64,000 nucleotides of DNA from Chiloscyllium plagiosum (taxonomy: Eukaryota). The stretch lies in assembly GCF_004010195.1 (NCBI RefSeq), contig NC_057718.1, forward strand, positions 90,056,837-90,120,836. The letters are read 5' to 3'. Of this stretch, positions 2,237 to 57,931 are shown piece by piece (position 1 is the first letter of the stretch; the number at the start of each line of letters is the position of its first letter). A program made the translations under genes and the position numbers. Below the pieces are notes generated by a model. It had not been told where the DNA came from and did no database searches. It saw only the letters and a list, made by a program, of their open reading frames with translations.

Positions 2237-2369
2237 AACTAGGATGCAAGAAGCAGAGTTGAAAAAAGAGCCCCATTTTATGTAGAGTAAGAAGAGTGTG
2301 CTGATTGGTTGGGCTATAATTGGCATGGAGATGCTGCAAGAGCAGTTAACTGTCAATCTTCATTGTCAG

Positions 2370-2544
2370 GCGAAAGTGAGGACTGCAGATGCTGGAGATT
2401 AGAGTCAAGAGTGTGGTGCTGGAAAAGCACAGCAGGTCAGACAGCATCTGAGGAGCAGGAAAATCAACATTTCAAGCAAAAACCCTTCATCAGGATGTTT
2501 TCCTGCTCCTTGGATGTTGCCTGAACTGTGCTTTTCCAGCACCA
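2370..2544. mobile_element. Short inverted PLE family A insertion
   Basis: Inverted arms. Perfect 16-bp TSD CAATCTTCATTGTCAG at 2354-2369 and 2545-2560. Confidence 0.85.
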
Positions 2545-3306
2545 CAATCTTCATTGTCAGACCAGGCAGGTAGATTCTGATTGGTCAGGACATTGCCAAG
2601 GAGTTTGACTGTCTCCGTGACTCCTCTATTTGATTAAAAAAATGCAATCTATGCACAAATTGCTTTTGCCTTTATAAAACAGGATCCAGTGTGTTTATTC
2701 CTACAGCTTCCAGCACTGCAAATGCATCAGAATGTGAGTGCAGCTGATGATCTTCAATTGGTCTCTGGTATAGCTCTAAATAGAGTCTGGATTATTCAGT
2801 AGGTGATTCCCTTTGGCAGAATCACATCTATTGGTAGATATATTTTTCTGAGGCTTGAAAACATAGGCCGTTTGAGCACATGTGGCATGATGCCAGCTAC
2901 AAATGGTCAACAGGATGAATTGTTTGTTATGGTCTGCCAGTCTTTGGGATGTACAGCATACATACCTGGCATCACTCTGGCATTGAAACTCATATAACAC
3001 ATCACTCATTTGTGTGGAGGTCAAAATGTCTTTTTGGCTTACAACAGGATCCTGTTCTTAGAGGAAACCACTTGTCGATTTATTGCATAGTTGCAGTATG
3101 AACCAGCCAGCTTCAACGAATCAAAGTTTTGAGATACCTTGCCCTTTCAGGGAAAGCTGAGGTAGACTGGCTACAGCTCAGAGCCAACAGTGATGGACTT
3201 GGTCCCTTTCGTGAGTTTGCACAATGATATGAAGAGTAATGATTTGCTCAAGATCTCCATTATCATGTGGGATAATGATTTGCTCAAGATCTCCATTATC
3301 AATTGG

Positions 3307-3722
3307 TGTCAGCCCAGATAATGAATTGAAGGTGTTAGCCCACTGTGTGCTACTGTCTGTGCACCTAACACCTTCAATACATTATCTGGGCTGACACCAA
3401 TTGTTAAAGTTCTCTTGAGAATGTAACTTTTTAAAAACGTTTTGCGATTTACATATGAAAGAAGTGAAACTAACATGATCATTCTAACAGATGAGAGACT
3501 TAACAAACAATCAAGGTATTTTTCAATGTATAATTTCAGTTACATCACACTGTAAACTTTTGCTATAAATTTTGTGTCCCCCAATCATGTACTCCACAAC
3601 CACCTGATGAAGGAGCAGCGCTCCGAAAGCTAGAGCTTCCAATTAAACCTGTTGGACTATAATCTGGTGTTGTGTGGTTTTTAACTTTGTCCACTCCAGT
3701 CCAACACCAGCATCTCCAAGTC
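3307..3722 (+). mobile_element. PLE family B 3' fragment with a short inverted 5' segment
   Basis: Homologous to 17056-18590. About 3307-3338 is the reverse complement of about 3366-3397. Contains a hammerhead core. Confidence 0.8.
3604..3632 (+). ncRNA. Minimal type-I hammerhead ribozyme core (PLE family B)
   Basis: CTGATGA A GGAGC-AGC-GCTCC GAAA GC TA. Confidence 0.7.
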
Positions 3723-3971
3723 CTGTGGAACTAACGCAGCGAATGAGATGTTTGACGTCCAAAAACCCCAGCCATCTTCCTATGAACTGGGAATGATCCC
3801 AAACTGCAGAGTGCTCTCCCTCACTTCACTTTCGCTCGAGCTGTTAATACCATACTCAGTGAAGTGCTTCAAATTGGAAATCAGGCCTGCTTTTCCTGTA
3901 CTCATCCCAAAAGTGAAGTATTTTATAAACATATGCAAAGTTCACCAATTTACATAGGTTTCAGACCCAGG

Positions 3972-4066
3972 ATTGAAAAATGTGTTGCTGGAAAAGCGCA
4001 GCAGGTCAGGCAGCATCCAAGGAGCAGGAGAATCGACGTTTCGGGCATAAGCCCTTCTTCAGGAAT
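3972..4066 (-). mobile_element. PLE family A single arm with an intact hammerhead core at 4035-4062
   Basis: Minus strand reads CTGAAGAAGGGCTTATGCCCGAAACGTC. Flanked by AGACCC(A/T)GGAT duplication. Confidence 0.8.
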
Positions 4067-4148
4067 TAGACCCTGGATGACATACAACAAAGACCAGGTT
4101 TCTGTACTTAACAACAATGACGATTTATTGTAAATCATAAGATCCTAG

Positions 4149-4382
4149 TTAAAAATCACACAACACCAGGTTATAGTCCAACAGGTTTAATTGGAAGCAC
4201 GCTAGCTTTCGGAGCGACGCTCCTTCATCAGGTGGTTGTCTTCATCAAGCATACTCCACAACCACCTGATGAAGGGGCAGCGCTATGAAAGCTAGTGCTT
4301 CCAATTAAACCTGTTGGACTATAACCTGGTGTTGTGTGATTTTTAGCTTTGTATACCCCAGTCCAACACCGGCTACTCCAAG
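4149..4382. mobile_element. Palindromic PLE family B insertion
   Basis: Inverted arms, intact core on the minus strand at 4203-4231. TSD TCATAAGAT(C/T)CTAG at 4135-4148 and 4383-4396. Confidence 0.85.
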
Positions 4383-4447
4383 TCATAAGATTCTAGGTAG
4401 TGGTAAACATTTATGAGACATCAACACCTAATTGTACTAGTTATCAC

Positions 4448-4925
4448 AGAGTCATAGTATTGTGCAGCATGGAAGCAAACATGCTGACCAGATATCCTAA
4501 GCTAATCCAGCCCCATTCGCCAGCATTTGGCCCATATCCCTTTAAGCCCTTCCTATTCATATACCCATCCAGATGCCTTTTAAGTTTGGATGGGTATATG
4601 AATAGGAAGGGTTTGGAGGGATATGGGCCGGGTGCTGGCAGGTGGAACTAGATTAGGTTGGGATATCTGGTCGGCATGGACAGGTTGGACCGAAGGGTCT
4701 GATTCCATGCTGCACATCTCTATGACTCTATGACTCTAAGTGTTATGATTGTATCAGCCTCCACCACTTCCTCTGGCAGCTCATTCCATACATGCACTAT
4801 TCTTAGGTCCCTTTTGTATCTTTCCCCTCTCACCTTAAACCTATGCCCTTTAGTTTTGGACTCTGCTACCCTGGCATTCACCCTATCCGTGCTCTTCATG
4901 ATTTTATAAACCTCAATAGCGTCAT
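4448..4925 (-). mobile_element. CR1/HER1 LINE 3' fragment with a second CR1 3' end (about 4586-4737) inserted in opposite orientation
   Basis: KGHRFKVRGERYKRDLR..WNELPEEVVEA peptide and (CTATGACT)n-type tails. Confidence 0.85.
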
Positions 4926-8685: not shown

Positions 8686-8739
8686 GAAATCAGAAACAAA
8701 AACAGAAAGTGCTAGAAAATCTCAATAGGTCTGTCAGCA

Positions 8740-9879: not shown

Positions 9880-10720
9880 ATGCATCACGACTTGATACGT
9901 CAACTGTTCTGCCCAGGACCATACAAAACTACAGCGAGTTCTAAACAAAGCCCAGTCCATCACACAAGCCAACCTTCCATCCATTGACTCAATGTACGCC
10001 TCTCGCTGCCTCGGGAAGGCAGCTGACATCGTCAAAGACCCCGAGGTAAAAACAATGACTGCAGATGCTGGAAACCAGATTCTGGACCAGTGGTGCTGGA
10101 AGAGCACAGCAATTCAGGCAGCATCCGATGAGCAGCAAAATCGACGTTTCGGGCAAAAGGGCTTTTGCCCGAAACGTCGATTTTGCTGCTCGTCGGATGC
10201 TGCCTGAATTGCTGTGCTCTTCCAGCACCACTGGTCCAGAATCTGGTTTCCAGCATCTGCAGTCATTGTTTTTACCTCGTTGATTTTAACCCTACTGCGA
10301 ATCCTCTTGCAAGGATGCCTGCCTGGAAGACGTTTTCCTCCTCTCTCTGGCTCTCTTGCCTTTATTCCTGATGAAGGGCTTTTGCCCAAAACGTCGATTT
10401 TGCTGCTCGTCGGATGCTGCCTGAATTGCTGTGCTCTTCCAGCACCACTGATCCAGAATCATCAAAGACCCCTCCCACCCCTGGTTATAATCTCTTCCAA
10501 CCTCTTCTGTCAGGCAGAAGATATAAAAACTTAAACACATGTACCGACAGATTCAAAAACAGCTTCAGCCTCATGTTTTGAATGAACTTCTCAAATTTAA
10601 TATTGATCTCACTCTTTCTGCACCTTCTCTACAGCCGTAACATTGTATTCCTCACTCCGTTCTGTTGCCCTAATGCACTTTGTATGGTGTGATCTGCCTG
10701 TACTGCATGCTGATGTGCCT
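9880..10720 (+). mobile_element. Rex1/Babar-like LINE 3' fragment interrupted by a PLE
   Basis: Peptide KLQRVLNKAQSITQANLPSIDSMYASRCLGKAADIVKDP / ..LFQPLLSGRRYKNL..RFKNSF, typical of the Rex1 ORF C-terminus. Confidence 0.75.
10042..10457. mobile_element. Young PLE family A composite: 238-bp near-perfect palindrome plus a partial tandem copy
   Basis: 10042-10279 is self-complementary and a third arm lies at about 10365-10457. Flanked by ATC(G/A)TCAAAGACCCC duplication. Confidence 0.9.
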
Positions 10721-12719: not shown

Positions 12720-13250
12720 AAAAACAGAAGCTGCTGGAAAAGCTCTGCAGGTGTGGCAGCATGTGTGGAGAGAAGTCAAAGTTAACAATTTGGGTTCAGT
12801 GACCCTTTTTCAGAACTGATGGTAGCTAGGAAAAGAATGTCTTTTATATAAAAGATAGGGTGGAGGAAGAGGGGAACAATAGGTAGAGGGAGAGCCTAAG
12901 GAGAGAGAAGATCAGTTGGATAGACAAAGGAGTGGATAATGATCAGCCTGGGAAAATGAACAGCTACTCATGGGGACAGTTAGTGACTAACAATAGGTTG
13001 TGTGTAGTAGCAGACCATGTGATAACAAGGCCTGGTGTGGAGGGGCTGGGGTAAGGACTTGGGCGAAGGTGCTTCAAGTCCTAAAGTTGTTGAACTCGAT
13101 TTTGAGTCCAGAAGGCTGTTGAGTTCCCCAGTGGAAAATGAGGTGCTGTTCTTCTCGCTTGTATCTGAACTTCGCTGGAACAGTTCAGCAAGCCTGCGAC
13201 GGACATGTTGGACAGGGGATGGGATGGGGTGGGGGTGGGGAGGTTTGCTG
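12720..13250 (-). mobile_element. Older PLE 3' fragment (family D)
   Basis: GIY-YIG C-terminal remnant, purine-rich tract, degenerate CTGAAAAAGGGTCACTGAACCCAAA core on the minus strand. Confidence 0.65.
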
Positions 13251-13864: not shown

Positions 13865-14227
13865 TTGTTTTTAATTTCCCGTGTAATAACTGCAATGATT
13901 GTTGAAACTTTCTCTCCAGGCAGCCCCATAGTGCCCTATATATTGGGGTGACCATTTCTCAAAGTTCAAAGCGGGGGCATGCTAGACTGGAGCACAGTAA
14001 AAGTAATGTGAACAGTAAACGTAATTGCTCGACCTGGCACGGCAGAGGTTTTAGCAAGTTATTTTTCACCACATTTGGACATCCGGTGCGAAACAGATGA
14101 GTTGATAATTGACGGTGGATCTGGCATGATGGTATTGAAATTCATTCAGATTTATCTCATTCATTAACATTCAGACCATTCAGGAATGTCAAGCTTTTGT
14201 ACCCATTGTCTACATTGCTTACTCTGT

Positions 14228-14605
14228 GAGAAAGGGAGGACTGCAGATGCTGGAGATTAGAGTCGAAGAGTGTGGCGCTGGAAAAGCACAGCCGATCAGG
14301 AAGCATCCGAGGAACAGGAGAGTCAACGTTTCTGGCATAAGCCCTTCATCAAGAATGAGGCTTGTGGGCCAAGGGGGCTGAGAGATAAATGGGAGGGGTG
14401 TGGGGGGAAGGTAGGTGGATGAAGGTGGGGTAGAAGGTGATAGGTTGGAGAGGAGGGTGGAGTGAACAGGTGATGGACAGGTTAAAAGGGCAGTGCCAAG
14501 TTGGAAGATTGGATTTGGGGTGAGGGGAGGGGAGGGGAAATGAGAAAACTGGTCAAATCCACATTGATCCCATATGGTTGGAGGGTCCCAAGGTGGGCGA
14601 TGAGA
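14228..14605 (-). mobile_element. PLE family A 3' fragment
   Basis: Reverse complement of 37930-38341 including the end of the GIY-YIG ORF. Confidence 0.8.
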
Positions 14606-14929
14606 AGTTCTTTGATATTGCTTAGTCTGTGCCCACTGAACTCAGTGAAAGAAATTAGTCTCAGGGATACATTGCAGGTGCTGTAAGAGCATCAGTCTGT
14701 TTAGTCATAGCTCTGTTCTCTTCTATCGATGTCCTACCTCAACTGGAATTGGAAAATAACGACTGACATTTTAACACTTTGCTTCATTAATGATCGGTCA
14801 CAAATACAGAAAAAAACACCTTTGAAACTCATTGTTGATGTAGCACTTATGCTTTCTTGACAAACAACGATCTCACTTTAAACCCAACTTGAGTCATATA
14901 CCATTCAGTCAACTTGACAGCTGCAACAG

Positions 14930-16944: not shown

Positions 16945-17055
16945 GTAAGAGAATACTGGTCTGTTCCTGTGTTTAAGTGGTTAAGGTTTTGTAATGCTTG
17001 ATTACACAAACTCACCTTGATCTACAAAATAAGGCTGCATGATTTCAGACTTCAA

Positions 17056-22315: not shown

Positions 22316-23712
22316 TAACGCACGTGACAGTTTCCTATTGAATGGGCCGTTGAGGCAAGATGAGTGTTGCCCTGCTCTTTGATGCCTCCTGCATTTACCC
22401 ACTTTATCTCCCTGGCTCGACTTGGCCTCTCTTACCCCCTTCCCCCATGTGCACCACCTGGGTTGGCATCTGTGTTACCATCTAGTAGGGACAGGCACGG
22501 GGACCTGAGGCCAAATGGAACCGGGCAAATGTTGATCTGATAATTAAGGGATAATTGGATGTGAATTATGGCTGGGTGTGTAAGTGGGGGATAGGGCTGT
22601 TGTGATGAAGTGGTAGTGTCCTTTCTCCTGGGCCTGGAGGTCCTGGTTCAGGTATCAGAGATGTGTCTTAACATGTTGAATATGTTAATTAAAAATATTG
22701 GACCCCACCCCCTTTGTGGCTCACAGATAGTGTCCCTGCCTCTAAAGCAGGAGGCCTCGAGTTCATGTCCCAACTACTCCAGAGATATATCATAACATCT
22801 CTGAACAGGTTGACTAGAAACTGTCAACCCACCGGTGATAAATAACCCATGATGCTGGGGTTTTGCGCTGCATGAATTGGAATAAAAGTCGAACTAGAAT
22901 AATACTGGACTTTTGACTTTAACCTCTGGGGTGTTTAACCTCTGCAGTGCTGGAAGAATGGAGTGGCTTTGCAAGTGAGAGTCACATTTCTAAGCTAATT
23001 GCAATAGAACTTCAGTGGTCTGCCTCTGTGCTGTTGAAAGGCTTGTTCAGTGGGAGTTGGTAGAAGATTTAGTGCCTGGTACAGGTCAATGGTGACCTTC
23101 TAAACACTGTCACGAGTGAAAACATATTTAATGGGCTGTAACCATGGAGAGTGAGCAAGCCAACATTTCGAGTCTAAGTCTCTGATGAAGAGTTTTGTCA
23201 ACTCACAACATTAGCTTGCTCTGTCTCCATGGATGCTCCCCAATCCGCTGTGACCTCTGGCATTTGTTGTTTTCAGTACGGATTCCAGCATCTGCAGTAA
23301 TTTGCTTTTCCTTTAACAAGCTGTAATCTTGGGCCTCCATGATGATTGACAAGTTGGGTGTCCAATGGCAGTAGTCTGGAGGTGGGGTGGCTGAAGGCAG
23401 GAGATCATGTGGTGACATCTCCCAGACCCAATTGGTCACTATGGTGTTCCAGAGATTATTTGCAATGTACAGTGTATATACCCCCCAGACTGAGCAATTC
23501 ATGGTGTCCTTCTCCTGCACCATTCACAATGAAAGGTTACATGAAACAGAGGTTGTGACAGGTTGAATTAATGAGCCTGGGGACGTACACCTTTATGACT
23601 GCTGGGAGGGACGGAAGAGTGCTTCAAGATGCATTCCACGCTAAATCTCTCCAAAGAACAGAAATAAAAGACTACAAACATTCTGATAGGCTTGAAGGCA
23701 TGCTTTAAAGGC

Positions 23713-23888
23713 AAGGAGAAAGTGAGGACTGTAGATACTGGAGATCAGAGTCAAGAGGGTGGTGCTGGAAAAGCACAGCGGGTCAGGCAGCATCCGAGGA
23801 GCAGGAATGATGAAGGGCTTATGCCTGAAACGTCGATTCTCCTGCTGCTCAGTTAGTGCCTGACAAACTGTGCTTTTCCAGCACCACC
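23713..23888. mobile_element. Inverted PLE family A insertion
   Basis: Two opposed arms with the centre deleted. Confidence 0.8.
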
Positions 23889-26456
23889 CTCCCAACTTTT
23901 AACCCCAAGTGAAGATAACTCAATACATCTCACAGAACCATATGAATTTGAGCAGCTGAAATTGAAGATAGGTGTGAGAGGTGTGAGAGATCTCTCAGGC
24001 GTGAGAGATCTCAAAACAACAGCGCAACCACTGAAGGAAGTTAACCTGACTCTTGAAGAAGTTCTAAACATTTGCAGAAGCTCTGATCTTGGAAAGCAAT
24101 AGCCATGGCCTGTAAGTTGGTGAGCAGTTTGGACCTGGCCGCCATATTGAAATGTGGCCCTGATTGTTCAAATATAACGATGCGGAGAAATTTTGCGGAA
24201 GCGATGGTGTTGGATTGGGATAGAGATGGACAGAATTCACTTGTCAGGTGAAGTCAACCAGATGAAGGGGCAGCGCTTCGAGAGCTTGTGATTTCAAATA
24301 AACCTCTTGGTCTGTAACCTGGTGTGACTTCTCTGACAGTGCGGAGAAAAAGCACCAATCAATCCACAGAAAGATCAAGGACGATAGACAAGATTGAAAT
24401 ATTCGTGGCGCTACACAAAGGAAAGAGTGTCCCGTATGGAGGAAATGTTTTAACTGCAAGAAGGTAAACCACTTCTCAGGTTGTGGGTAGGGCTGTAAAA
24501 GCTAGAGTGGTGATTGCTACTGAGAAAGTGGTGGATGTGCGTACAGTTACAGCATTGAAAAGACATTTGGGTAAGTACGGTGAATAGGAAAGGTTTCGAG
24601 GGATGTGGGGCTAGTATAGTTTGGGATTATGGTCAGCATAGACTGGTTGGACCGAAGGGTCTGCTTCTGTGTTGTATGACTCTCTGACTATATGTTGGAT
24701 GATAATTTGGACAAGTCAAGTATGAGTACAGAGATGGCAGATGACTCAATCCAGCCATTCCAACAGGTTGGCAATGTCAAGTCTGAAGGAGAAACATAAC
24801 CATTGTAAGACAGTGGAATAGGAGCATCAAATTAGTCAATAAAAGGTAAAGTAGCCCATAGTCCCATTCTCTCAGTGCAAGGAATGACTGGCGGTGGGTT
24901 TAACCTGAGGGTCAGCACGCCTCAGGTGAAAGGAGAGGTAGAGAAGGAGAGTCCTTCATAGTAACCTTAGCCGCTTCAGGAATTGAAGCCATGCTGTTGG
25001 CATCTGGATCACAAACCAGCCATCCGGACAACTGAGCTAACCGACTCCCGTCAAGTGAATATACGTGACAAATAGACACAGGTCCTCCTCTTGCTTTGCA
25101 AGCCTTTGTAAAGCACGATGTCATTGGCAAGAGTGACATCTTGGAATTCCAGATTATTCAACACAGAGCTAAAGCTGCACACCTCAGCAGAAACAAGTTG
25201 GAAGCTCAGTCTAATGACCTGGATGTTCCAGGAGAGATTTCCGGTGTTTCAAGGGCCGCATCGAGTGGATAAACAGCGGGACACAGAGCACATCTGATTG
25301 GAGGGCCACAAACAAAGCTTGGTGCCAAAGGCAAGCAATTGAAAGCCTGCCTTACCAGATGGCTAGTGCAATGAAGACAAAACGTGTGGAAAGTGAACAG
25401 TGTGAGTCAGTTGAGAAGATTTTGAAACAGGCCCAGAGAGCAGATTGTTCCAACCAGCAGATGTTGGAGGAGAAGCCAGTGACCTAAAGCCTGACTGAAG
25501 GTCTGGGCCCTTGGGAAGCCAACTTCCAGCCAGTTGTGGCCTAGCCATTGACTCATAGGTGAAAATTCCAGTTGACCTCTGATGACAGGCCCCTGGGTTG
25601 GCTTTTTATAGGTGTCATTGGTTACCCAGAGGAGTATCCCTTCAGTTGCCCATCTATTCTCTGGGAAAATAGACCAGACTGAATGGTACTGTCTGGTAGC
25701 ATGAATCTTTGTACCCACCCTCCTGCCAGCCTCTGTACTCAAAGTGAAAAATGGCAGTGGAAATTCTTCATCTGGTGTGCATGAGGGGGTTACATCTGAC
25801 TGTGCAAGACTCGCTAATGAGACATGGTACACACCTTCAGAGGAAGTGATGAAATATCACATGATCTTGCTCAAACATGCGGCCTCGTGGCAAAATGAAG
25901 TCACAGGAAGGTGTTTCTCAAATAATGTTAATTTTTTCCTCACCTCAGCAGAGTCATTCCAGCAGCACAACAAGACCAAGAATATAATCACACAGTCAGT
26001 GTGACCTTCCCCTGCTGAATTGGAACTTGTTTAATTCCAGATTGTTTCAATACATGGTGTATCTGACAAGAGGTTTTGCGAGAGCTGTGTTTCAGCATAG
26101 AATTAGCTAAAACTGACAATATGGATGGATGTGATGATCAAGTCCACATTACACCATCAGGGCACTATATATCTCTCAAATCTAATGAACTGCTCCCAGA
26201 CTTTGTTAAGTCCATGTCACTATATCAATCAAATTTCAATTGTACCAATTACTAAGATGCACTCTGCTATTCTCCTGTCTTTGGAAAATTGCTTGAGAAT
26301 GTTGTTATGTAGTTTGGGAGTACTTTGCCATTTTATTTCTTCTTCCTCTTTGAAATTTCTTTTGTTTTGTCTTTGGGCGATGTCTTCAGCTTTGACCAGA
26401 TGTTATGATCCCAGCTGAAGTGGGCACGTTAGATCTCAGGCTGAAGTCTGGTTTGA

Positions 26457-34359: not shown

Positions 34360-34709
34360 GTAGAGTCCTACAGCACAAAGACAGACCCTTTGGTCCAACT
34401 AGTCCACGCCAACCATGTTGCCAAACTAAACTAGTCCCACCTGCCTGCGCTTGGCCTACATCCTTCCAAACCTTTCCTCTTCATGTACTTATCCAAATGT
34501 CTTTTAATTATTGTGACTCTACCACCAAATCCTTCAGTAGTTTATTCCATCCATGAACCACTCACATGTTGCCCCTCATGTCCTTCAAATCTTTCTCCTT
34601 TCACCTTAAAACTATGCACTCCCCCACCCTAGGGAAAAGACTCTTGCCATTCACCTTATCTATGCCCCTCATGATTTTAGAAAGCACTGTAAGGTCACCC
34701 CTCAACCTG
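34360..34709 (-). mobile_element. CR1 3' fragment
   Basis: Reverse complement of the CR1 3' region. Confidence 0.82.
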
Positions 34710-34934
34710 GAGGAGAAAGTGAGGTCTGCAGATGCTGGAGATCAAAGTTGAAACTCTATTGCTGGAACAGCACAGCAGGTCAGGCAGCATCCAGGGAACA
34801 GGAGATTCGACGTTTCGGGCACAGGCCCTTCTTCAGGAATCATTCCTGAAGAAGGGCCTGTGCCCGAAACGTCGAATCTCCTGTTCCCTGGATGCTGCCT
34901 GACTTGCTGTGCTGTTCCAGCAATAAAGTTTCAA
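34710..34934. mobile_element. Young palindromic PLE family A insertion with two intact hammerhead cores
   Basis: Cores at 34809-34836 (-) and 34846-34873 (+). Perfect TSD CACCCCTCAACCTG at 34696-34709 and 34935-34948. Confidence 0.92.
34846..34873 (+). ncRNA. Minimal type-I hammerhead ribozyme core (PLE family A)
   Basis: CTGAAGA A GGGC-CTGT-GCCC GAAA CG TC. Stem I is AUUC/GAAU from the flanks. Confidence 0.72.
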
Positions 34935-34969
34935 CACCCCTCAACCTGACATATTGTTAACGTAGTGGA

Positions 34970-35182
34970 GAGAGTGGTGCTGGAAAAGCACAGCAGGTCA
35001 GGCAGCATCCGAGGAGCAGGAGAATCAATGTTTCAGACAAGAGCCCTTCATCGGGAATGAGGACGAAGGGCTCTTGCCCGAAACGTTGATTCTCCTGCTC
35101 CTCGGATACTGCCTGACCTGCTGTGCTTTTCCAGCACCACACACTCGACTCTGATCTCCAGCATCTGCAGTCCTCACTTCTT
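34970..35182. mobile_element. Palindromic PLE family A insertion
   Basis: Inverted arms. Confidence 0.82.
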
Positions 35183-35645
35183 TCATACAGTTATTGTAGA
35201 CAGTACAGATATTCATACTAAGCTGCTGATATAGGCATTCTTGGTATATTGCCAATGTTGGCATAAAATATTCCTGCTTTATATTTCAGTACAGGCATAT
35301 ACCAATTCCAATGCAATGTCAATGCATCTATCCTGTTGTAGTCTCAATACATGTAATCCTGGTACATTACCAATGCAGGAAGTACACCAGTAGATTGACA
35401 ATGAAGCCTGGTAGATCTTGCCTGAGGGAGACTGGTCAAGGCACCTGATTGACAACTCCTTGAGATTTTGACACCGAAGCTGACTATAATTAATACTTGG
35501 CACACTAGCTGAAATTTGTAGCAATGATTTTTATTTTAAATGAATTAAGTGTCGTCTACGTTTCAGTGAGCAGCAAATACATTCTGAAGGAACAGCAAAT
35601 ACCGAATAATAAGTGATTCTTTGGCTTTAGTCAAATCAGTATTTG

Positions 35646-35876
35646 GAGAAAGTGAGGACCGCAGATGCTGGGATCACAGTCAAAATGTGTGGTGCTGGAA
35701 AAGCCCAGCCGGTCAGCCAGCATCTGAGGAGCAGGAGAGTCTGCGTTTTGAGCATAAGCCCTACATCAAGAATCCCCCACATTCCTGATGAAGAGCTTAT
35801 GCCCGAAACATTGATTCTCCTGCTCCTTTGATGTTGCCTGACAGGCTGTGCTTTTCCAGCACCACATTTTTTAACA
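35646..35876. mobile_element. Palindromic PLE family A insertion
   Basis: TSD CAAATCAGTATTTG at 35632-35645 and 35877-35890. Confidence 0.87.
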
Positions 35877-36607
35877 CAAATCAGTATTTGTTTGACATAT
35901 CAGTTTACCTCCTAACAAAGCAATCACGGTGAATGTTTGCCACCTGATTCACTGTCACATCAACTGTCTGTGTTCTGTACTGTCAAAAGATGCCTCTGAA
36001 TCCATACATACCAGGCATTGAGAGCTGGTCCTAAACACACACAAACAACAAATTGCCCCTCCCCCAGCACAATGTCCCAAAGCACTTCAATTGTGTACTA
36101 ATTGTTCAATTGTACGTAGGTTGTGGCTGTAAGGGGGTATCAGTTGCATTCCTATTCTCTGAAAGTGGAGCTCCAACCCTTTATCGATGCACTTCAAGTC
36201 CGGATTCCTGGTCTTTGACCTCCTGGGGTGGACAGCTGGGGAGTGGGCAGACCTGAAGGCCTCATTATGGGTCCTGATGGTGAACATCTGAGGTGGCCAT
36301 ATAGCCTGACTGCCTGCCTCCCTTCTGTCATTACTCCTGCGCCCAGGTGTCCCCAGAGACAAAGCTTGCTGGGCCCACCTTTTTGAGACTAGTGGGCACT
36401 GACGGAGGGGGTGCGGGTGGCTGCAGGGCACCATCAACAGAGGGATATTTTAATGGACAATTACGATTGGTTCTGCAGAAACAATGTCCTGAAGTAAAGA
36501 GGTTAATTGCAGGACAGGCTTTTTCAAACCCAAATGTATCAAGGAACAGGGGAGTACTTTTGATAAGAAGGCATATTTTAACTTGATGAATTTTATTTCA
36601 AAGTTCT

Positions 36608-36925: not shown

Positions 36926-37789
36926 GTGTTTTGGTTACTGTGAGTTAATTCACCTGGGGAATTTAACTGATTATCTGATATTAAAAGTGGTACAAATAGA
37001 ATCATAGCATCCCTACAGTACAGCTTCAGGCCATTCTGCCCATTGAGTCTGCACCGATCCTCTGAAGAGCATCCTACCCAGAAATAGAGTTGGAACTGTA
37101 ATCCTCATGTGTAGCTTTGTAAACAAAAGCTCATAAAAGTGTGTAAAGATTGGCTCAGCTCTATCTTTCACTTCCTAGCTTCCTGGAATATAACACTTCT
37201 CAGCACCGAATCTTAAAAAGAGATGTTGATGTGGGTAAACGATAGCTCAGTCAGAGTACCGTTCAAGGAGGAGGGACAGAAAGCTTCAGGCAAGACAGAT
37301 GCTTTAAACATCTTCTGACTTTGGCCACCTTGTTTTAGGTTCAGCCTGGGAGAAGGACTGACTCACTTGTGATTGTCTGACGTTGTTGAAGGCTAGCTTC
37401 TGTTCACCTGTGAGAAAGCAGCCAATAAATGGCATGGATGTATTGGTTGTGTGTAAGTACTAGTACACTGTATTCTCTTCCCATGCCTGGTCTAGCTGCA
37501 GTGCCGATTCCAATCCAGACCCCTGAAATGTGGAGTGAGATAACTCCGGTGTTTAAGGACAGGATACCCGGCTCCCCCACCCCTGCTCAGCTTCCCTGCT
37601 TCCACCTTCTCCCAAAGAGTTTGGTATTATTCTTTCCGTTATGGGTAAGTCACCACAAGTTACCTTTAATTCGGCTACTTATTAAGAAATCTCACAATCA
37701 AGTACTGAAACAGGGATTTAAACTTTACTGCATGTAGCAACCAAAATAAGGCAACAAGTTAAGCCTCACAACCCAACTTGGCTATTATA

Positions 37790-38341
37790 TGAACACCTCT
37801 GGGACACCCGGACAAACCAACCCAACCACCCTGTGGCTCAACACTTTAACTCCCCCTCCCACTCCACCAAGGATATGCAGGTCTTTGGACTCCTCCACCG
37901 CCAGACCACAACAACACGACGGTTGGAGGAAGAGCGCCTCATCTTCCGCCTGGGAACCCTCCAACCACAAGGGATGAACTCGGATTCCACCAGTTTCCTC
38001 ATTTCCCCTCCCCCCACCTTGTCTCAGTCAAATCCCTCGAACTCAGCACCGCCTTCCTAACCTGCAATCTTCTTCCTGACCTCTCCGCCCCCACCCCAGT
38101 CTGACCTATCACCCTCACCTTGACCTCTTTCCACCTATCACATTTCCGACGCCCCTCCCCCAGGTCCCTCCTCCCTACCTTTTATCTTAGTCTGCTGGAC
38201 AAACTTTCCTCATTCCTGAAGAAGGGCTTATGCCCGAAACGTCGATTCTCCTGTTCCTTGGATGCTGCCTGACCTGCTGTGCTTTACCAGCAACACATTT
38301 TCAGCTCTGATCTCCAGCATCTGCAGACCTCACTTTCTCCT
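37790..38341 (+). mobile_element. PLE family A 3' fragment: GIY-YIG C-terminus, 3' UTR and intact hammerhead core at 38216-38243
   Basis: EHLWDTRTNQPNHPVAQHFNSPSHSTKDMQVFGLLHRQTTTTRRLEEERLIFRLGTLQPQGMN links family A to a PLE endonuclease. Flanked by CTATTAT(A/C)TGA duplication. Confidence 0.9.
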
Positions 38342-39395: not shown

Positions 39396-40577
39396 TGTTG
39401 TGATCCATGCAAACACTGACTGGATAGGAAAAGACCGTCTGGTTAATCCATTCAGTTCCATGTGACCCAGGGACAAAATCCAGTTAAAAACCAAATTCAG
39501 TGATAGCTGCAAATGAACGTAATGCAACACTGTTCTGAGATGCACTCGCCAAGTTGGAATCAGCATGCATCATTTGCACATTTTATTGATCTATCCTTCT
39601 GACAATTAGGATCTTTGAGTGTTGCACTAAAATCATTAGCCCATTGAATTCTGCTGGGAGAGGTAACAAACTGCTTAAAACTCAGACTGATATAATATGT
39701 CTTTGAAATTCCTCTCTGACACCACTACCTGATCAGAACTAGCCCGGCTGATCACTAAGTGCTTGTCTCTCAAGTGCCGCTATATTTAATCAGCAGCAGG
39801 TATCAGCTGTTGAGAGTGCGGTGCTGGAAAAGCACAGCCGGTCCTGCAGCGTCTGAGGAGCAGGAGAGTCAACCTTTTGGGTGTAAGCCCCTCATCTGCA
39901 GTCCTCACTTTCTCCTAGAGGATATCAGCTGTCAACCTGACCCTGCCTGTGGTGGGATAGGCCACTTCTTAGCGTGTTTAAACTGGGCTCCTGCAGGCCA
40001 TTTCAATGGAAGTAAATTTCCATTGGGGTGCTGACCTCGTCCAAACTCTACTCAGCTGGAAAATATGCTTCCTTTCTCATATTTTTGTGAGTCCTCTCGC
40101 CAAAGTTTGCAAGTGTTCTTCAGGGAAGGTAATCTGACATCCTAAACTGGTTTGGCCTACGTCTGACTCTATGCCCATGCCTCTCAACTGCCCTTTGGCA
40201 ACTAGGGCTTAGGCCGGTCTAGCCAGCGGCACACACAGCCATTGAGTGAATAAAGTCAAAAGAGCCCATGCTGATGTTGCGCTCCACATGAGCTGACCCT
40301 ATAACAGTTCATCTCGCCCCCCTCTACGTATCCTCCCACTTTTCCCCATGCATTTATCTGATCTATCCTGAAAGAGTGGGATTGCATGGGTGTTGAAAGC
40401 TCTGTAGAGCCAGAGGGGTGTTTGCATCAGTCTCAAAACCCTCACATTTGATCTATTTTGCAGCCACTTCTCACCAAATGCTGTAAGACACCGTAACCAT
40501 TTTGATGGGCAAACCACAGCCTGCACTTCCCCACAAATAACAGTAACCGTGGGTAGGTTTAACAATACCTCACAGGA

Positions 40578-41040
40578 TAGACCTCATAGAAGTTTATAAA
40601 AATAATGAGAGGTTTAGATAGAATTAATGTAGGTGTCTTTTCCCTAGGGTGGGGGATTTCAAGGTTGAGAGTGTGTTGCTGGAAAAGCACAGCAAGTCAG
40701 GCAGCATCCAAGGAGCAGGAGAATCGACGGTTCGGGCTGGACCCCTTCATCAGGAATTGGGGGATATCAAAACTAGAGGGCACATTTTTTAAGGTGAGAG
40801 GAGAGAGTGTTAAAACAGACATGAGGGCTTTTGTTTTTACACAGAGGATGGTTTTTGGGTGGAATGAAATTCCAGAGAAAGTGATGGATGCAGGTACAGT
40901 TACAACATTTAAAAGACTTTTAGATAAGTCCATGAATAGGAAAGATTTGGAGGGATATGGGTCAGGAGCAGGCAGGTGGGACTAGTTTAGTTTGGGATTG
41001 GTTGGATTGAAGGGTCTGTTTCTGCGCTGTATGACTCTAT
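40578..41040 (+). mobile_element. CR1 3' fragment with a PLE family A arm inserted at 40663-40757
   Basis: TSD TGGGGGAT(T/A)TCAA at 40650-40662 and 40758-40770. Confidence 0.87.
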
Positions 41041-45981: not shown

Positions 45982-46463
45982 GCATCTGAGGATCAGGAGA
46001 GTTGATGACTCGGGCATAGGTCTTTTCCCTAGGGTGGGGGAGCCCAGAACTAGAGGACATAGGTTTAGGGTGAGAGGGGAAAGACATAAAGGGGACCTAA
46101 CAGGCAACTTTTTCATGCAGAGGGTGGTGCTGAGCTGCCAGAGGAAGTGGTGGAGGCTGGTACAAATGCAGCATTTAAAAGGTATCTGGATGGGTATAAG
46201 AATAGGAAGGGTTTGGAGGGATGTGGGCCAAATGCTGGCAAATGGAACTAGATTTATATAGGATATCTGGTCAGCATGGATGAGTTGGACCAAAGGGTCT
46301 GTTTCCGTGCGGTACAGCTCAATGACTCTAACCCTTCCTGATGAAGGGCTTCTGCCCGAAACATTGACTCTCCTGCTCCTCGGATGCTGCCTTACCTGCT
46401 GTGCTTTGCCCGCACTACACTCTTCGACTCTGACCTCCAGCATCTGCAGTCCTCACTTTCTCC
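45982..46463. mobile_element. Inverted PLE family A insertion with a CR1 3' fragment (about 46020-46330) inside it
   Basis: Flanked by TCATGTC(A/G)TGATAT duplication. Confidence 0.82.
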
Positions 46464-46490
46464 TCATGTCGTGATATCTACAATAAAGAC

Positions 46491-46653
46491 CAACAGGTTT
46501 AATTGGAAGCACTAGCTTTCGAAGCGCCGCTCCTTCATCAGGTGGCGCTCTGAAAGCCAGTGCTTCCAATTAAACCTGTTGGACTCTGACCTGGTGTTGT
46601 GTCATTTTTAACTTTGTACACCCCAGTCCAACACCGGCATCTCCAAATCGTGA
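46491..46653. mobile_element. Palindromic PLE family B insertion
   Basis: TSD CTACAATAAAGAC at 46478-46490 and 46654-46666. Core at 46513-46541 (-). Confidence 0.88.
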
Positions 46654-48484
46654 CTACAATAAAGACTGGGGTTTACGTTATGTCACTACTGATTGGAAGT
46701 TCCAGTAGCATTGCTAATGTGACTATGTGTTTTGCTCTGCTGAATTTGTTCGTGACTCCTCTTTGATGAATGTGACCCACCACCCAGATTGCTCTGTGCT
46801 TAATTAAGACACTCCCTACAGCAAAATGCCCACTGACGAAGGTGCAGTTGAGCTGTGAGGTTGCAGGGTGCAGCAGTGCTCCATCACGAGAATCTGAATC
46901 TCCTGAGGCATCGGTGCCCCTGTGTATGGGATTGCTGGTCACCTGGTAGTCAATCCAGTGTCGGAGTGTGGCATCCTCCCATTGACATCTGAGTGCCCAT
47001 CCTCTATGGAAGGGCATGTGACTACTGGTGCAGCCGCAACTGGGGGATGGTGTCCAATTTCCCACACCCCAAGCAGAGATGGGTGGCGAGCTTATTCTGA
47101 ATGCTGGGAATATTGACGTACAGCTGAAGGGCTGGTCAGGTGAAGGGGCCTCCAAGTTGGCAAATTGGTATTCAACCTGCCAACCGCTTTCTGAGGGAAG
47201 GAGCACTTTGTAGTCGGCCTGCCCTTCAGTGTAACTATTCAAAGCTTTTAAAATTCTAATGCACCACACTCTTATTTGTTCAGAGACACAGTGTGTGGGA
47301 CAGCTCCCTTATGGGCATTGAGGAACTTCCATGAGAAAAATCCTCTTCACTACCTTCCCAAATGATTGTCTTTCTATCTCAGCCACAGGGTTCCTGACTT
47401 CTGCATCAAGTGTTTGCTTGAGAACTTCAGAAGTCGTTTGGAGATTTGGGCTCCACGGTGTTTATCCAAATTTCAACCTTCCTCAGCCTCAAAAGCCTTC
47501 CTTCGCCAACCAGGTCAGACCCCACCCATCCCGGCTGTCATTTTATGTCACGTGGCTTGAAGGAACTCTAGTTACTACCCTTGGAGAAATGAAAAAAGGG
47601 AAATAATGAAAAGAAACATTCAGACCAAGTGTCAACATAATGCATTGCGTCGCTGCAGACCGTAGTTTCTCTTTGATTCCCAGCCTTTGGATTTGATGTT
47701 CATTTCAGACATAGCACTTAACAATCAAATAGGCTCCAGTCATCAGTGATTTTAATTATGAGCTTATCTGTTCTTCGTCTGTTCTTCATTTGCTGAAATG
47801 AGGAGCATTTTGGATTTATAGAAATAGTTGAAAAGATTGAAACAAGACATAGGAGTGTAGCATTTCGGCGAGTTATTGTGGAGGAAAACCATGGGCTGTA
47901 GAGTCAATTTTCTCGTTTTACTGATGTTACCATCAAATTCTGACATGCTTAATTTTGTCAACAGCATGCAATTTGGAAAAGATGTAACAAAAAAAAGAGT
48001 TGAAATGAAAGGATAAACTTGACTCGATGTGAAGGTGAATTGGAAAATATCATGGAATCCTTTTTTTTCCAAGTGCTCTTGACGATGAGATGTTCCATTT
48101 TAGTTTGATGCAGGTGAAGAGTTCAGTGCATCTATTAATACCATGTTAATTTGAGTCATTGTGGATCAGTGTATTGGAGTTTAGGCTGTATATTAAACTC
48201 TGCTTTGTCTCCGCAGCAGTGTACTTGACCTTAATCCCACACCGCAAGATTAAAATTCCTGGATGTGGTCTGTATTTTCACTTTCTCTTCAGGGCTAACA
48301 TCCTTCAGCCACTGAACTGCTAAAGCAGAACACAAAACGGCACTTTTATATCAGCGTTTTCAATGAGGTGGATCATACATATATAGTTGCTTCAAGGGTG
48401 AAGGTCATTGGAGTCTAGAGTTCACTGCCTGAAGGGAAGGTTGAGTCAGAAAATCTCATAACATGTAAGCAAGTGTTTACATTT

Positions 48485-49007
48485 GGGGCGGCATGGTGGC
48501 TCTGTGGTTAGCACCGCTGCCTCACAGTGCCAGGGATCCAGGTTCGATTCCAGCCTCGGGCAATTGTCCGGGTGGAGTATGTACATTCTCCTTGTGTCTG
48601 TGTGGGTTTCTACAGCTGCTCTGGTTTCTTCCCACAATCCAAAGATGTGCAGGTTAGGGTGGAATGGCCAAGCTAAATTGCCCATAGTGTTCAGGGATGT
48701 GTAGGTTAGGTACATTAGTCAGGGATAAATGTAGGGCAGGTGGCATCCGAGGAGCAGGAACATCAACATTTCAGGCAAAAGTCATTCCTGAAGAAAGGCT
48801 TTTGTCCGAAACGTTGATTTTCCTGCTCCTCAGATGCTGCCTGACCCACTGTGCTTTTTGAGCACCACTCTAATCTAAACTCTGGTTTCCAGCATCCACA
48901 GTCCTCACTTTTGCCTAGGGGTAAACGGGTTTGGGTGGGATACTCTTTGGAGGGTCAGTGTGGATTTGTTGGGCCGAAGGGCCTGTTTCCACACTGTAGG
49001 GATTCTA
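48485..49007 (+). mobile_element. HE1 SINE interrupted by an inverted PLE family A insertion (about 48735-48917)
   Basis: SINE sequence resumes after the PLE. Confidence 0.85.
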
Positions 49008-52224: not shown

Positions 52225-52362
52225 GCAACTTTTACAAGAGCTCTTGTAAAATTCAGAAAAACTGGGACGCGTCCTGAGGTGGGGATCGTGTTGTCCTGGT
52301 CAGAAGGCAAGGATGGGTCTGAAGGGAAAAAGGGCCTTGGTTGACAATGAACCCAATGAGGT

Positions 52363-52458
52363 TCATTCCTGATGTAGGGCTTTTGCCTGAAACATCGATT
52401 TTCCTGCTCCTTGGATGCTGCCTGACCTGCTGTGCTTTTCCAGCACCACTCTAATCGA
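52363..52458 (+). mobile_element. PLE family A single arm
   Basis: Flanked by GACAATGAACCCA duplication. Confidence 0.8.
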
Positions 52459-52874
52459 GACAATGAACCCACTGATTGACAGCATGGATGTCCGATCTTG
52501 GGGATGTGGCACCAATGCTTTAAATAAATATACTGCTGTGTTTTATCGAGTCACTAATCATTAGGGCTTGGTTGTCTAAATATAGACAAATATGTTTATG
52601 ATGCAGGATTTGCTTTTGCTTTAATTTATCTCGCACGTAGAATCGTCCAGCACAAATCTAGACCACTCAGTCCACTATGCTGCTGCTGGCTGTTTTTGAA
52701 AGGGCTCTCCAATTGGTCGCCCACCCCTTGCCCCTCTTCCATGACCTTGCAAGTTGTAGGTGACATGAAAGATGGCAAACTCTGGAATGTCTTTGGTGTG
52801 TGGGAAGTCGCTATGATCTAAAAGCAGTAAGGTCATGTTGCAGAAAGACCATTGCAGAAATAATACCCCAAATG

Positions 52875-54667: not shown

Positions 54668-55192
54668 TTGTCTGAGTGAACTAATTCAAAGCAAAGGAGA
54701 TAGTAAATAATATTAGTGGGTACTAGTGTGAACTTGCCTCCAAAAGGGTATTTTACCTAATGTAGTGATGTTTATGTTATTCCCTATAACATAAGGCATT
54801 GAGTGTAGACCTTGTGGTATTGAAGAATCCAACAGACATTTCTTACAATTAAACATTATATAGAAACATTGCATTGCTCAGGCACATAAGTGTCTGGGCT
54901 AGTATTAAGCTACTCATTTACAGTAGAAGTGCATGCTGTTAGTGGAGCATCATGCTTCAACTGATCCAAGGTAAGGTGGTGTATGAGATCTTCATAGCCC
55001 CTGGTCACATGAAATGATGATATCCTGACTATGTCTCTTATATGCACACTGACGTACTGACTGTGAGACATAACACACCAGGGATGGGTGAGATTGATGT
55101 AATAACGTAAAGAACTGCTGGAGAAATTCACCAGGTCTGGCAGCATCTGTGGAGAGAAAACAGAGTGAACATTTTGAGCAGGATTGATGCCT

Positions 55193-55331
55193 GATAAAAC
55201 TTAGTGTGCCAGATAAACTGTGAATGTACCAGGTAAACCATAAGGATACCTGATAAACCATTAGGCTACCAGATAAACTGTGAGAGTACCAGGTAAGCTA
55301 TAAGTTTACCAGGTAAACTGTAAGGATACCG
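55193..55331. repeat. Diverged 20-bp tandem repeat (about 7 units)
   Basis: Units such as GATAAACTGTGAATGTACCA and GGTAAACCATAAGGATACCT. Confidence 0.8.
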
Positions 55332-56451
55332 GACAGAGAATAACAATGGAGAAAATGACAGCTAGGGAAAGTAGTGAGGAGGTCTTACTGATGATACAAA
55401 GAGAACACAATTAGCTTTGGACTCTCACCATGACAAACGAATGTGCGAAGAGGTTGCAATGTTAAAGTGCTGTTAGATGGACAGATGGATAGAAGGGGAT
55501 GATGAGGATTAAAAAGAGGATGCTTCACAGTTACCTGAAGAATGGATGGTCATATGAAGAACTGAGGAGAGAAACAGATGACTGAACTCATTTGGAGATG
55601 GGGATTGACCCTGCCACATCTTAGCCTGATTGAAGGCTGGTTATAGAAGTGTTTGTTTTTTTGTCCTGTTTTGTTTGTTCATCACTTTCTAGCAAGAAAA
55701 AACAAAAGGCTAATATGAATTTGTACTGAACTTAATGCCAAAGAGGTGTGAAAATGCACCTTTTCTTCAGAGATGGCATCAGATTCCATTACATAGCCAT
55801 TACATGAGTTGAATCTTTCTCCATCCCAAAAGTCAATTATATTCAATAAGCGCGAGTCGACTCTCAGTCAGGTATAAGCTGAAAGCTAATGGCATTGATT
55901 TCATGCTACCCCGAGATCATGTCTCAATACTGAAACTCAATGTTATTTTCAGATCCCTCCTTTGCCCTCCATCCTTACTCTTAATCTTCAATAATTCTGG
56001 TGACTTGTGCATCCTCGATTTTAATCATTCCACTATTGGTTGCTGTATTTTGAGCTAATGAGGCTGTGAAACCCGCTCCCCTCCCCCCCCCAAACCTCTC
56101 CAGCTCTCTTTTTGTCTGTTCCCCATGAGCATGTTATCTCATGCATAAATGTTACAATGAGGATATGATTTTTTTTTGGGGCTATTATGTGTTTTGGTGT
56201 ACAATTCACACCAAAGTTTAAGACGCATCAGGTCAGTGTCAGGTGACAACCTCCCTTTGTGTGCAGCTCAGCTGAGCTCAGTTCCTCTGTAGCACTTGTG
56301 GGAACTATTACTGTAACTTGTTGTGGTTTTTTTTCTTTATTTGTTTAGATGTCAATTAGGCTACTACTAATGACACGGTACTTTGGACTGTAGCATGAAT
56401 TTCAGCCCATCAAAAGTAGTATCCATGTAATAGTGAACCACATAAATTTAA

Positions 56452-56658
56452 GATAAAAATCACACAACACCAGGTTATAGTCCAACAGGTTTAATTGGAA
56501 GCACTAGCTTTCGGAGCGATGCTCCTTCATCAGGTGATAGTGAAGGAGCGACTCTCCGAAAGCTAGTGCTTCCAATTAAACCTGTTGGACTATAACCTGG
56601 TGTTGTGTGATTTTTAACTTTGTCCACCCCAGACCAACACCGGCATCTCCAAATCGTG
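56452..56658. mobile_element. Palindromic PLE family B insertion
   Basis: TSD ACATAAATTTAA at 56440-56451 and 56659-56670. Intact core at 56505-56533 (-). Confidence 0.88.
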
Positions 56659-57109
56659 ACATAAATTTAAAGTCTAAAAACTCGGACTTTTGCAGGAGTA
56701 CATGTGGTATGTTGACCTTTTCCTTTTCTCTATTGCTTATCCTCCAGTCAGTTTGGTCTCCTGATCACTTAGACTCTCTCAGAAATCCTAGAGAAGCCGA
56801 ATTCTTAAAGGAACCATCACCCCACCTTAAAATATGGGCTTTTTCCATATCGCCAACCCCTCCCCTCCAAAATCACACGGGCTAGTAGAGACTGCATTGA
56901 AATGTTTACCACTCTGTTCTCATATTCTAATGGATACATTTATGATGGTTTAAACTTGGATCTGAGCTGCCATGTACGTACAGGACGTTGGCTTCATTTA
57001 TCATGAAATTCTAAATCCTCTTCGGAAGGCAAATCCTCACGGAGAAATGATATTGGATGCATGGGTTGTTTTCCTGATGTTTCGAGGATAGAGTGCCTGA
57101 TGGATTGCT

Positions 57110-57931
57110 GTAGATATTTGCCTTCATTGCTCAGATCTTTGAGTACACGAGTTGGGACATCATGTTGAGGTTGTACAGGGCACTGTTGAGGCCTCTTCTG
57201 GAGCACTGTGTCCAGTTCGAGTTGCCCTGTTATAGGAAGGATATTATTAAACTGGAGAGGGTTCAGAAAAGATTTACCAGGATGCTGCTGGGAATGGAAG
57301 GCTTGAGTTATAAGGATAGGCTGGGACATTTAAGGGTTACACCCGAAACATGGTCTCCTCCACCTCCTGATGCCGCCTGGCCTGCTGTGTTCTGTCGGCC
57401 TCCTGCCTGTCTATTTTTGTCTCTAGCATTTTTCACTGGAGCATAGGAGGTTGAGGGCTAACCTTTCAGAGGTTTATAAAATCATGAGTATAGATAAGGT
57501 GAATGGCAGGTGTCTTTTCCCTAGGGTTGGGGATTTCTAGTTGAAACTTTATTGCTGGAACAGCACAGCAGGTCAGATGCTGCCTGACCTGCTGTGCTTT
57601 TCCAGCAATAAAGTTTCAACTTTGATCTCCAGCATCTGCAGACCTCACTTTCTCCTTGGGGATTTCTAGACTAGGGGGCATATTTTTAAGATGAAAGGAG
57701 AAAGATTTAAAATTGACATGAAGGGCAGTGTTTTTACGTGATTTGTATGTGCAATGAACTTTCAGAGGAAGTGTGGATGTGGATTTAAAAAGGCATTTGG
57801 ATAAGTCCATGAATAAGAAATGTTTGGAGGGATGTGGCCAGTAGCAGGCAGGTGGAACTAGTTTAGTTTGGGATAATGGTAGGCATGGACTGGTTGGATT
57901 GAAGGGTCTGTTTCCTTGCTTTATGACTCTA
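57110..57931 (+). mobile_element. CR1 3' fragment with two PLE-derived inserts (about 57330-57420 and 57541-57655)
   Basis: LYRALLRPLLEHCVQF peptide. TSD TTGGGGATTTCTAG at 57527-57540 and 57656-57669. Confidence 0.87.

Follow-up and report, generated by a model that had tools for sequence, protein, structure and literature searches.

A stretch of 64,000 nucleotides (nt) from Chiloscyllium plagiosum (NC_057718.1, 90,056,837-90,120,836, forward strand; below, the window) contains 12 short palindromic inserts made of head-to-head copies of the terminal repeat of Penelope-like elements (PLEs). These palindromes are almost certainly the products of individual PLE insertions. The fuller scheme, in which both 3' ends of a staggered cut prime on element RNA, the cDNAs run off at the RNA 5' end and their ends are joined, is held with less assurance but is the probable route. 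An earlier reading of the same letters (the preliminary description) had proposed two-ended priming at a staggered cut by a PLE-derived element; this is supported by target-site duplications (TSDs), by the presence of a single tailed end in every palindrome and by short arms that occur alone, and much of it had already been published.

The window is repeat-rich vertebrate DNA of 44% GC with a single N gap (992 bases at 30228-31219). Elements were located by BLAST with two reference copies and by an inverted-repeat scan, which gave the 12 palindromes and about a dozen lone arms of two families, A and B; a pair from a third family at 23132 was left out of the count. Positions along an arm are numbered from the C of the hammerhead ribozyme core CUGANGA (position 0; 38216 in the family A reference and 3604 in that of family B), and the arm 5' ends 48720L and 56440L were read by eye. 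Coordinates are collected in Table 1.

The centres of the palindromes differ in 12 of 12 cases. A comparison of central junctions had been proposed in the preliminary description as the means of telling independently mobile elements from per-insertion products, and the junctions of the window palindromes, each unique, point to the latter. An independently spreading class, MITE-like or retrozyme-like (MITE, miniature inverted-repeat transposable element), in which the centre is copied along with the arms, would account for the uniform size, for the recurrence of some junction forms at perhaps 150-200 loci (with the genome taken to be ~4 Gb), and for three atypical short ends, which could be truncated copies of older palindromes. 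Such a class is nevertheless very improbable: centres differ even between 34696 and 57527, whose arms are 97% alike, the recurrent junctions are those that microhomology favours, the arms do not end at the cleavage site, TSD length varies, and in the predicted folds (-197 and -133 kcal/mol) the hammerhead is buried within a single long hairpin of the palindromic RNA. A MITE has symmetric terminal inverted repeats, a fixed short TSD and a common internal sequence; assignment to this class was rejected on the one-sided tail, the TSDs of 10-16 bp and the 12 different centres. Assignment to the non-LTR (long terminal repeat) retrozymes was likewise rejected, the arms being inverted and not on the same strand, and only 2 of the 24 arms starting near +28, where the ribozyme is predicted to cut. 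The retrozyme-like alternative once offered for these inserts is thus at odds with their unique centres, with arms that pass through the cut site and with copies that are inverted and not tandem.

Exactly one outer end is tailed in all 12 palindromes, an outcome for which a free 50:50 choice would give 0.5^12 = 2.4e-4. Tailed outer ends lie at +123..+126 in family A and +116..+122 in family B, and short outer ends at about +79..+91 in family A and +80 in family B, with outliers at +50 (46478) and about +59 (48730). Five tail lengths reported earlier fit within a few bases, but the tail is not constant: it measures 32-46 nt in most palindromes (44-46 at 2354), ~70 at 46478 and ~65 at 48730. Lone arms occur both with and without the tail, and since tail-less ones carry TSDs (40660 and 52360, more weakly 3960), the short end works alone as an insertion end. 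At the short junctions, at least 2 nt of the duplicate match the continuation of the RNA in 7 of 12 cases, against ~0.75 expected at 1/16; the continuation was taken from the partner arm where possible and from another copy in four cases.

For genome-wide estimates, raw reads from two other samples of C. plagiosum, each from one individual, were aligned to a single family A copy (37651-38490); 171,983 and 165,035 of 12.9 million reads matched it at 88% likeness. The long end is sharp genome-wide: at 38340-38342, 32,532 reads of run X20 pass from the element into random flanks (agreement 0.33). Depth in the same run falls from 83.0k at +64 to 48.4k at +111, partly through a subfamily indel at 38296, so that the ratio of tailed to short ends is only roughly half. 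Depth, together with the assumed ~4 Gb genome, places family A arms on the order of 10^5. Two kinds of rare strand-switch joint, both of low count and possibly alignment artefacts, were also seen elsewhere in the genome: one joins a short end to a long end, tail to tail (38301/38342), and the others (38216-38221/38306-38307) have arms starting at the start of the tail, as with the tail-only partner at 39811.

The seven TSDs named in the preliminary description are all present. A fixed-slack search at element edges was calibrated on 462 mismatched edge pairs, of which 2 were dropped as edges of abutting elements; 9 of 12 palindromes scored at least 10 (TSDs of 10-16 bp, including two further ones at 10028/10458 and 39801/39923), against 0 of the remaining 460 pairs, with a control maximum of 9. 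Three of 10 lone arms also scored at least 10, and 23714, 34960 and 48730 gave no convincing TSD, wider search slack bringing no rescue. The top control score came from pairing 40660 with 57527, which lie at the same position of two paralogous copies of a LINE (long interspersed element) that is taken here to be of CR1 type. The narrow range of TSD lengths, read earlier as a record of two-ended priming, is not peculiar to the palindromes, as TSDs of the same length flank the lone arms 3960, 14220, 40660 and 52360. No common target motif across the TSDs was found by eye.

Paralogous empty sites show how the duplicates arose. Left and right flanks of 57527 overlap by exactly 14 in 4 of the 7 paralogous LINE sites listed, and those of 40660 by exactly 13 in 2 of the 4 listed, the remainder being the filled sister site or partial alignments. 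Because the empty LINE paralogues carry the duplicate once, the duplicates arose on insertion. Flank searches yielded such sites for only 2 of 15 elements. Three candidates were set aside: the target of 48730, in a short interspersed element (SINE), had 19 paralogues with scattered overlaps and was too variable; the flank match of 34696 was misaligned; and a skip over 37787-38446 in relatives removes ~100 bases beyond the element, within repeated flanks, and was not accepted as an orthologous empty site. The inserts at 40650-40770 and 57527-57669 are different family A insertions, in subfamily and structure, with the short end left in both; their LINE hosts read GATTTC and four empty paralogues read GAGTCC or GAGTTC. 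Two family A insertions at one LINE position suggest a target preference.

The arm 5' ends are piled up at the front edge of the hammerhead, a point absent from the preliminary description: 16 of 24 fall at -15..+6, 8 lie further downstream and none upstream, and lone tail-less arms bounded by TSDs begin at -4, -4 and -6. The apparent uniformity of element size comes from this pile-up. Helix I begins at -4 in family A (ATTC/GAAT in 34696), which is also the A of TCATTCC, and three of its subfamilies have TTTATCT or ATCT 24-26 nt upstream; in family B, TATAAA or TATAAG stands at -40 and the 5' ends at -8..-15 fall 25-32 nt downstream. These motifs are presumably a TATA box and an initiator-like sequence. 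A minimal hammerhead descriptor matched 9 times in the window, always within A or B arms, and not once in 100 shuffles, and the Rfam search of the window returned no hammerhead at E<=1; all 17 weak Rfam matches in the window were to miRNA models, 4 of them on PLE stubs. The inserts had been described as opposed hammerhead arms. That holds in the strict sense at 34696, the only locus where both arms pass the descriptor, whereas neither arm of 57527 has a core and at 39811 there is no overlap between the arms, of which the right one is 24 nt of tail.

Reads show the same edge, with depth rising from 16.7k at -14 to 76.8k at +38 (run X20). In each of the three best-supported strand-switch joints (38212/38214, 38213/38224 and 38215/38227), one side lies at -4..-1 and 2-3 letters are shared; the first corresponds to a pair of arms that stop at -4 and anneal through AT (GGAATTCC). 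Top joints are found in 52-71 reads each per run against a depth of ~80,000, 1,206 more joints are unlisted, and none dominates.

Taken together, each palindrome would represent one insertion of an endonuclease-bearing PLE, built at the target site. The GIY-YIG endonuclease would nick the two strands ~10-16 nt apart, a stagger read from the observed TSDs. Each 3' end would then prime reverse transcription inside the element RNA, one at a distal start (+116..+126, tail included) and one at a proximal start (mostly +79..+91); microhomology of 1-4 nt is frequent, the ends are observed, and priming of this kind has been shown in vitro for an Anolis element only. On a template left uncut by the hammerhead, most cDNAs would run off at the RNA 5' end, which would coincide with the 5' edge of the hammerhead (~-4, TCATTCC, in family A; -8..-15 in family B) and would account for the observed pile-up. 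Finally, the 3' ends of the two cDNAs would pair over 1-4 nt, or be bridged by a short filler, and repair would give head-to-head arms with one tail; a single extended primer would leave a lone arm, tailed or tail-less, with the same TSD. The MITE-like size would simply reflect how far the start sites lie from the RNA 5' end.

Fold-back or self-priming, in which one cDNA (or an antisense template) loops and copies itself and the short end marks a copy stop or trimming by the endonuclease, would readily give near-perfect hairpins with tiny loops (1 nt between the arms of 34696) and microhomology at the centres. It has precedents in published proposals that the tail results from endonuclease resolution (PMC8557442) and that self-priming or an antisense template is used (PMC3846280). 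In 5 of 12 palindromes (23714, 34960, 46478, 56440 and 39811), however, the 5' reach of the short arm exceeds that of the tailed arm, and the arms of 39811 do not overlap; later deletion could mimic both, but not easily the lone short arms with TSDs, and the short end corresponds to a reverse transcription start in vitro. Priming from both ends is preferred on these grounds, and fold-back is considered unlikely.

Slightly less likely still is a mobile unit consisting of a non-autonomous RNA of ~130 nt (-4 to +126, hammerhead and tail), expressed by stub copies from an internal promoter and moved in trans, from which palindromes would again be made anew at each insertion. Stubs outnumber ends linked to an open reading frame (ORF) by ~4-5 to 1 in read depth, a confounded figure, and a head-to-tail joint of exactly 131 nt (38342 to 38212) was recovered from each of the four runs (8 and 6 reads, 11 and 1 contigs); the promoter of Drosophila Penelope is internal (PMC2377424), and tandem retrozymes derive from pseudo-LTRs (pLTRs; bioRxiv 10.64898/2026.07.22.740005). 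The 5' end of an ordinary full-length transcript, however, yields the same products, subfamily variants are common to stubs and ORF-linked copies (the 3960 arm is 96.7% like the 37790 copy), family B stubs lack the TATA box at -40, and the tandem joint is rare. This rare joint leaves some room for the stub, as opposed to the palindrome, acting as a non-autonomous unit.

A stricter form of the two-ended scheme is offered only tentatively. Double priming would here be obligatory and asymmetric, a protein dimer setting two nicks with a stagger of 10-16 nt on two fixed sites ~35 nt apart of one uncleaved RNA that begins with base 1 of helix I; the leading cDNA would be displaced by the trailing enzyme, or that enzyme would stall (leaving a tail-only arm, as at 39811), and the run-off ends would anneal. 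If true, the hammerhead would serve as a 5' leader and protein-binding module and not as a nuclease, a module of 130 nt starting at helix I may spread in SINE-like fashion to the order of 10^5 copies, and tail, inverted pLTR and TSD would be explained by one scheme.

Several points weigh against two-ended priming with run-off, or limit it. The RNA 5' end and the priming sites are deduced from the element ends, and the short ends at +50 and about +59 are off the usual site. For PAc, the Poseidon element of Anolis carolinensis, start sites in vitro were reported to be alike between strands and not homologous to the cut DNA (PMC11167929). Only at 34696 and 10030 are partner arms plainly each other's best match, which bears on whether one or two RNA molecules were copied, and arm-to-arm identity gave no separation of one-template from two-template models. 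Family B has no protein match in the window. The depth step at -4 is partly a homology boundary, loose ends at 38212 resembling the 3' untranslated region (UTR) of another subfamily (agreement 0.5); the 5'-end counts in the window escape this caveat, each end being bounded by a partner arm or a TSD. The drop in depth at 38296 is in part a subfamily indel, and hence gives no more than an approximate genome-wide ratio of tailed to short ends. Purging or misassembly of long-armed palindromes may exaggerate the 5' wall, and later central deletions may have reshaped centres.

The link to a GIY-YIG protein drawn in the preliminary description (37790-38341) is real for family A, at 37788-38030; in the window, family B is tied to no ORF by protein match. 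The 37788-38030 segment is 63-89% identical to shark proteins with reverse transcriptase and GIY-YIG domains and is continuous with the family A pLTR; a second link of pLTR and GIY-YIG is found at 14500-14613. A Pfam search with the fragment of 81 amino acids alone found nothing. In P0003 and P0004, the nearest proteins in the database, CxxxxCxxC precedes the endonuclease; Nematis shares this motif, and the linker lies outside the window fragment. Family A probably belongs to the Neptune clade. A family A 20-mer had no match in viral contigs; its matches in metagenomes (17) and prokaryotes (9) were of only 20-26 nt and were treated as chance. Degraded C-terminal GIY-YIG fragments with hammerhead-like ends of their own, at 12720-13230 and 27300-27743 (minus strand), represent further, older PLE families.

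Table 1. Palindromes, lone arms and related PLE copies in the window. Arm positions are relative to the core C; mm, mismatch.
Locus	Feature	Positions	Strand	Arm 5' ends	TSD	Structure
2354	Family A palindrome	2354..2560		-2/+30	16 bp, exact (2354-2369, 2545-2560)	Tailed arm 2370-2495 (-) from -2; short arm 2498-2544 (+), +30 to +79
4135	Family B palindrome	4135..4396		-8/-15	14 bp, 1 mm (4135/4383)	Short arm 4149-4239 (-) from -8; ~11 nt filler; tailed arm 4251-4382 (+) from -15
10030	Family A (second subfamily) compound insert	10028..10472		+11/+6	15 bp, 1 mm (10028/10458)	Tailed arm 10043-10159 (-); arm 10157-10277 (+) continuing beyond tail; tandem short-ended pLTR, end 10457
23714	Old family A palindrome	23714..23897		+33/+1	None convincing	Tailed arm (-) from +33; short arm (+) from +1
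34696	Young family A palindrome	34696..34948		-4/-6	14 bp, exact (34696/34935)	Tailed arm 34710-34840 (-) from -4; short arm 34840-34934 (+) from -5/-6; intact minimal hammerhead in both arms
34960	Old family A palindrome	34962..35187		-9/+2	At control level	Short arm (-) from -9; tailed arm (+) from +2
35632	Family A palindrome	35632..35890		-4/-8	14 bp, exact (35632/35877)	Tailed arm 35646-35773 (-) from -4; short C-rich spacer; short arm (+), end 35876
39811	Family A inverted insert, arms non-overlapping	39801..39932		+2/+102	10 bp (39801/39923)	Short arm 39811-39896 (-), +2..+87; right arm 39893-39916 (+), tail only, +102..+125; 4 nt common at joint
46478	Family B palindrome	46478..46666		-4/+14	13 bp, exact (46478/46654)	Short arm stops early at +50; tailed arm from +14
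48730	Family A palindrome within SINE	48730..48916		~+10/-6	At control level	Tailed arm (+) from -6; left arm end near +59
56440	Family B palindrome	56440..56670		-3/+4	12 bp, exact (56440/56659)	Short arm (-) from -3; tailed arm 56541-56658 (+) from +4
57527	Young family A palindrome without hammerhead core	57527..57669		+53/+45	14 bp, exact (57527/57656)	Arms +53..+88 and +45..+124; within CR1-type LINE
37790	5'-truncated family A copy	37788..38341	+			C-terminal half of GIY-YIG domain (37788-38030), 3' UTR, minimal hammerhead (core C 38216), tail to 38341
40660	Lone tail-less family A arm	40650..40770	-	-4	13 bp, 1 mm	-4..+89; same LINE position as 57527
3960	Lone tail-less family A arm	3963..4078	-	-4	11 bp TSD-like repeat, score 8	
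52360	Lone tail-less family A arm	52343..52475	+	-6	Up to 17 bp, 1 mm	
14220	Lone tailed family A copy	14214..14631	-		15 bp, 1 mm	Extends into GIY-YIG C-terminus
23132	Old palindrome of third PLE-like terminal repeat	23132..23313				Tail at right end only; read by eye

Further copies depart from these forms. In the compound insert at 10028 the middle arm runs 86 nt beyond the tail (10277-10363), probably into the ORF's beginning, and then jumps to the tandem pLTR. A longer family B copy at 3238-3725 has at its 5' end a 43 bp inverted piece of 3' UTR (3296-3407), beside a 27 bp direct duplication (3238-3301). A long, tail-less family B copy on the minus strand (17054-18590) is split by a LINE-like fragment (~17110-17888) with a 9 bp duplicate, and its far end may carry the final codons of an ORF. 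An extra family A piece of 44 nt lies at the 5' edge of a CR1-type copy (45982-46025), and a 52 bp tandem array is found inside a SINE-like copy (39007-39266). At 4444-4737 the 3' end of a CR1-type LINE forms a head-to-head palindrome with its 3' tandem repeat at both outer ends and no clear TSD; it resembles the PLE stubs and is of a different class.

The architecture itself, with inverted pLTRs, a one-ended tail of 30-40 nt, TSDs and opposed minimal hammerheads, is already known, and the shark members are new. New here are the one-tail rule, lone tail-less arms with TSDs, natural empty sites and the 5' wall at the hammerhead edge. A literature search, outside whose scope most subscription papers and Repbase lay, found no description of such shark stubs, of a rule pairing one start with each nick or of the stricter, obligatorily asymmetric scheme, and families A and B may already be catalogued in repeat databases. 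The ~10^5 short, TSD-bounded shark copies are a large natural read-out of PLE integration, with countable predictions (one tailed end per insertion, the length of the stagger, a wall where the RNA begins), and there is a risk of annotating such stubs wrongly as MITEs or microRNA hairpins.

Insertions of PLEs have been described with an inverted, 5'-truncated copy and a 30-40 bp tail at one end (PMC8557442; PMC8969392), and rotifer examples with inverted pLTRs between 8-10 bp TSDs, a tail, TATA and initiator sequences in the pLTR, and proposed self-priming (PMC3846280). Drosophila Penelope has an internal promoter and a 34 bp repeat (PMC2377424). The published accounts attribute inverted ends and tail to self-priming, endonuclease resolution or circular RNA, and where they treat the later steps these are called unvalidated. 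Shark palindromes share with Penelope/Poseidon and Neptune insertion units the head-to-head pLTR, one-ended tail, TSD, partial tandem (10030), GIY-YIG link and minimal hammerhead; they differ in that both arms are reduced to the pLTR end, giving a unit of 112-234 bp, in that 5' ends are clustered and not spread, and, against the rotifer examples given, in TSDs of 10-16 bp. Opposed minimal hammerheads 100-700 bp apart are known from metazoan PLEs (PMC4209133), and the shark type I motifs agree with these in core, bulged base, stem II, short helix I and palindromic 15.2-16.2 (ACGU in A, AGCU in B); as far as its accessible text goes, that survey mentions no sharks and gives no anatomy of opposed pairs.

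The closest biochemical counterpart is PAc, for which both strands were cut and extended in vitro, with two reverse transcription starts bounding the tail (Frangieh 2024, PMC11167929); uncleaved RNA was the main substrate, and a start was placed 111-118 nt after an ORF start that lies at stem II (PMC11167929). Mapped on the shark element, the PAc start falls near +120, close to the long end. In both systems two 3' ends are separated by ~35 nt and stand at comparable distances from the hammerhead, the template is uncleaved and both strands are used, whereas the main text of the PAc study contains no pairing of one site with each strand, no analysis of TSDs or palindromes and no 5' run-off, and priming there was without homology where shark ends commonly match 1-4 nt. 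Animal non-LTR retrozymes, reported as same-strand tandems with at least two type I hammerheads and circular RNA (PMC7229834; bioRxiv 10.64898/2026.07.22.740005), are likewise short, non-coding and pLTR-related, with a type I hammerhead; in contrast, the shark pairs are inverted and end away from the cut site. The shark inserts also invite comparison with twin-primed L1 copies. In L1 twin priming, two target 3' ends prime on element RNA and leave an inverted, truncated insert flanked by TSDs. The shark palindromes are likewise inverted and TSD-flanked, and 39811 has precisely the non-overlapping shape; unlike L1 inserts, they have a second site nearly fixed ~35 nt from the first, arms that overlap almost entirely, and no poly(A).

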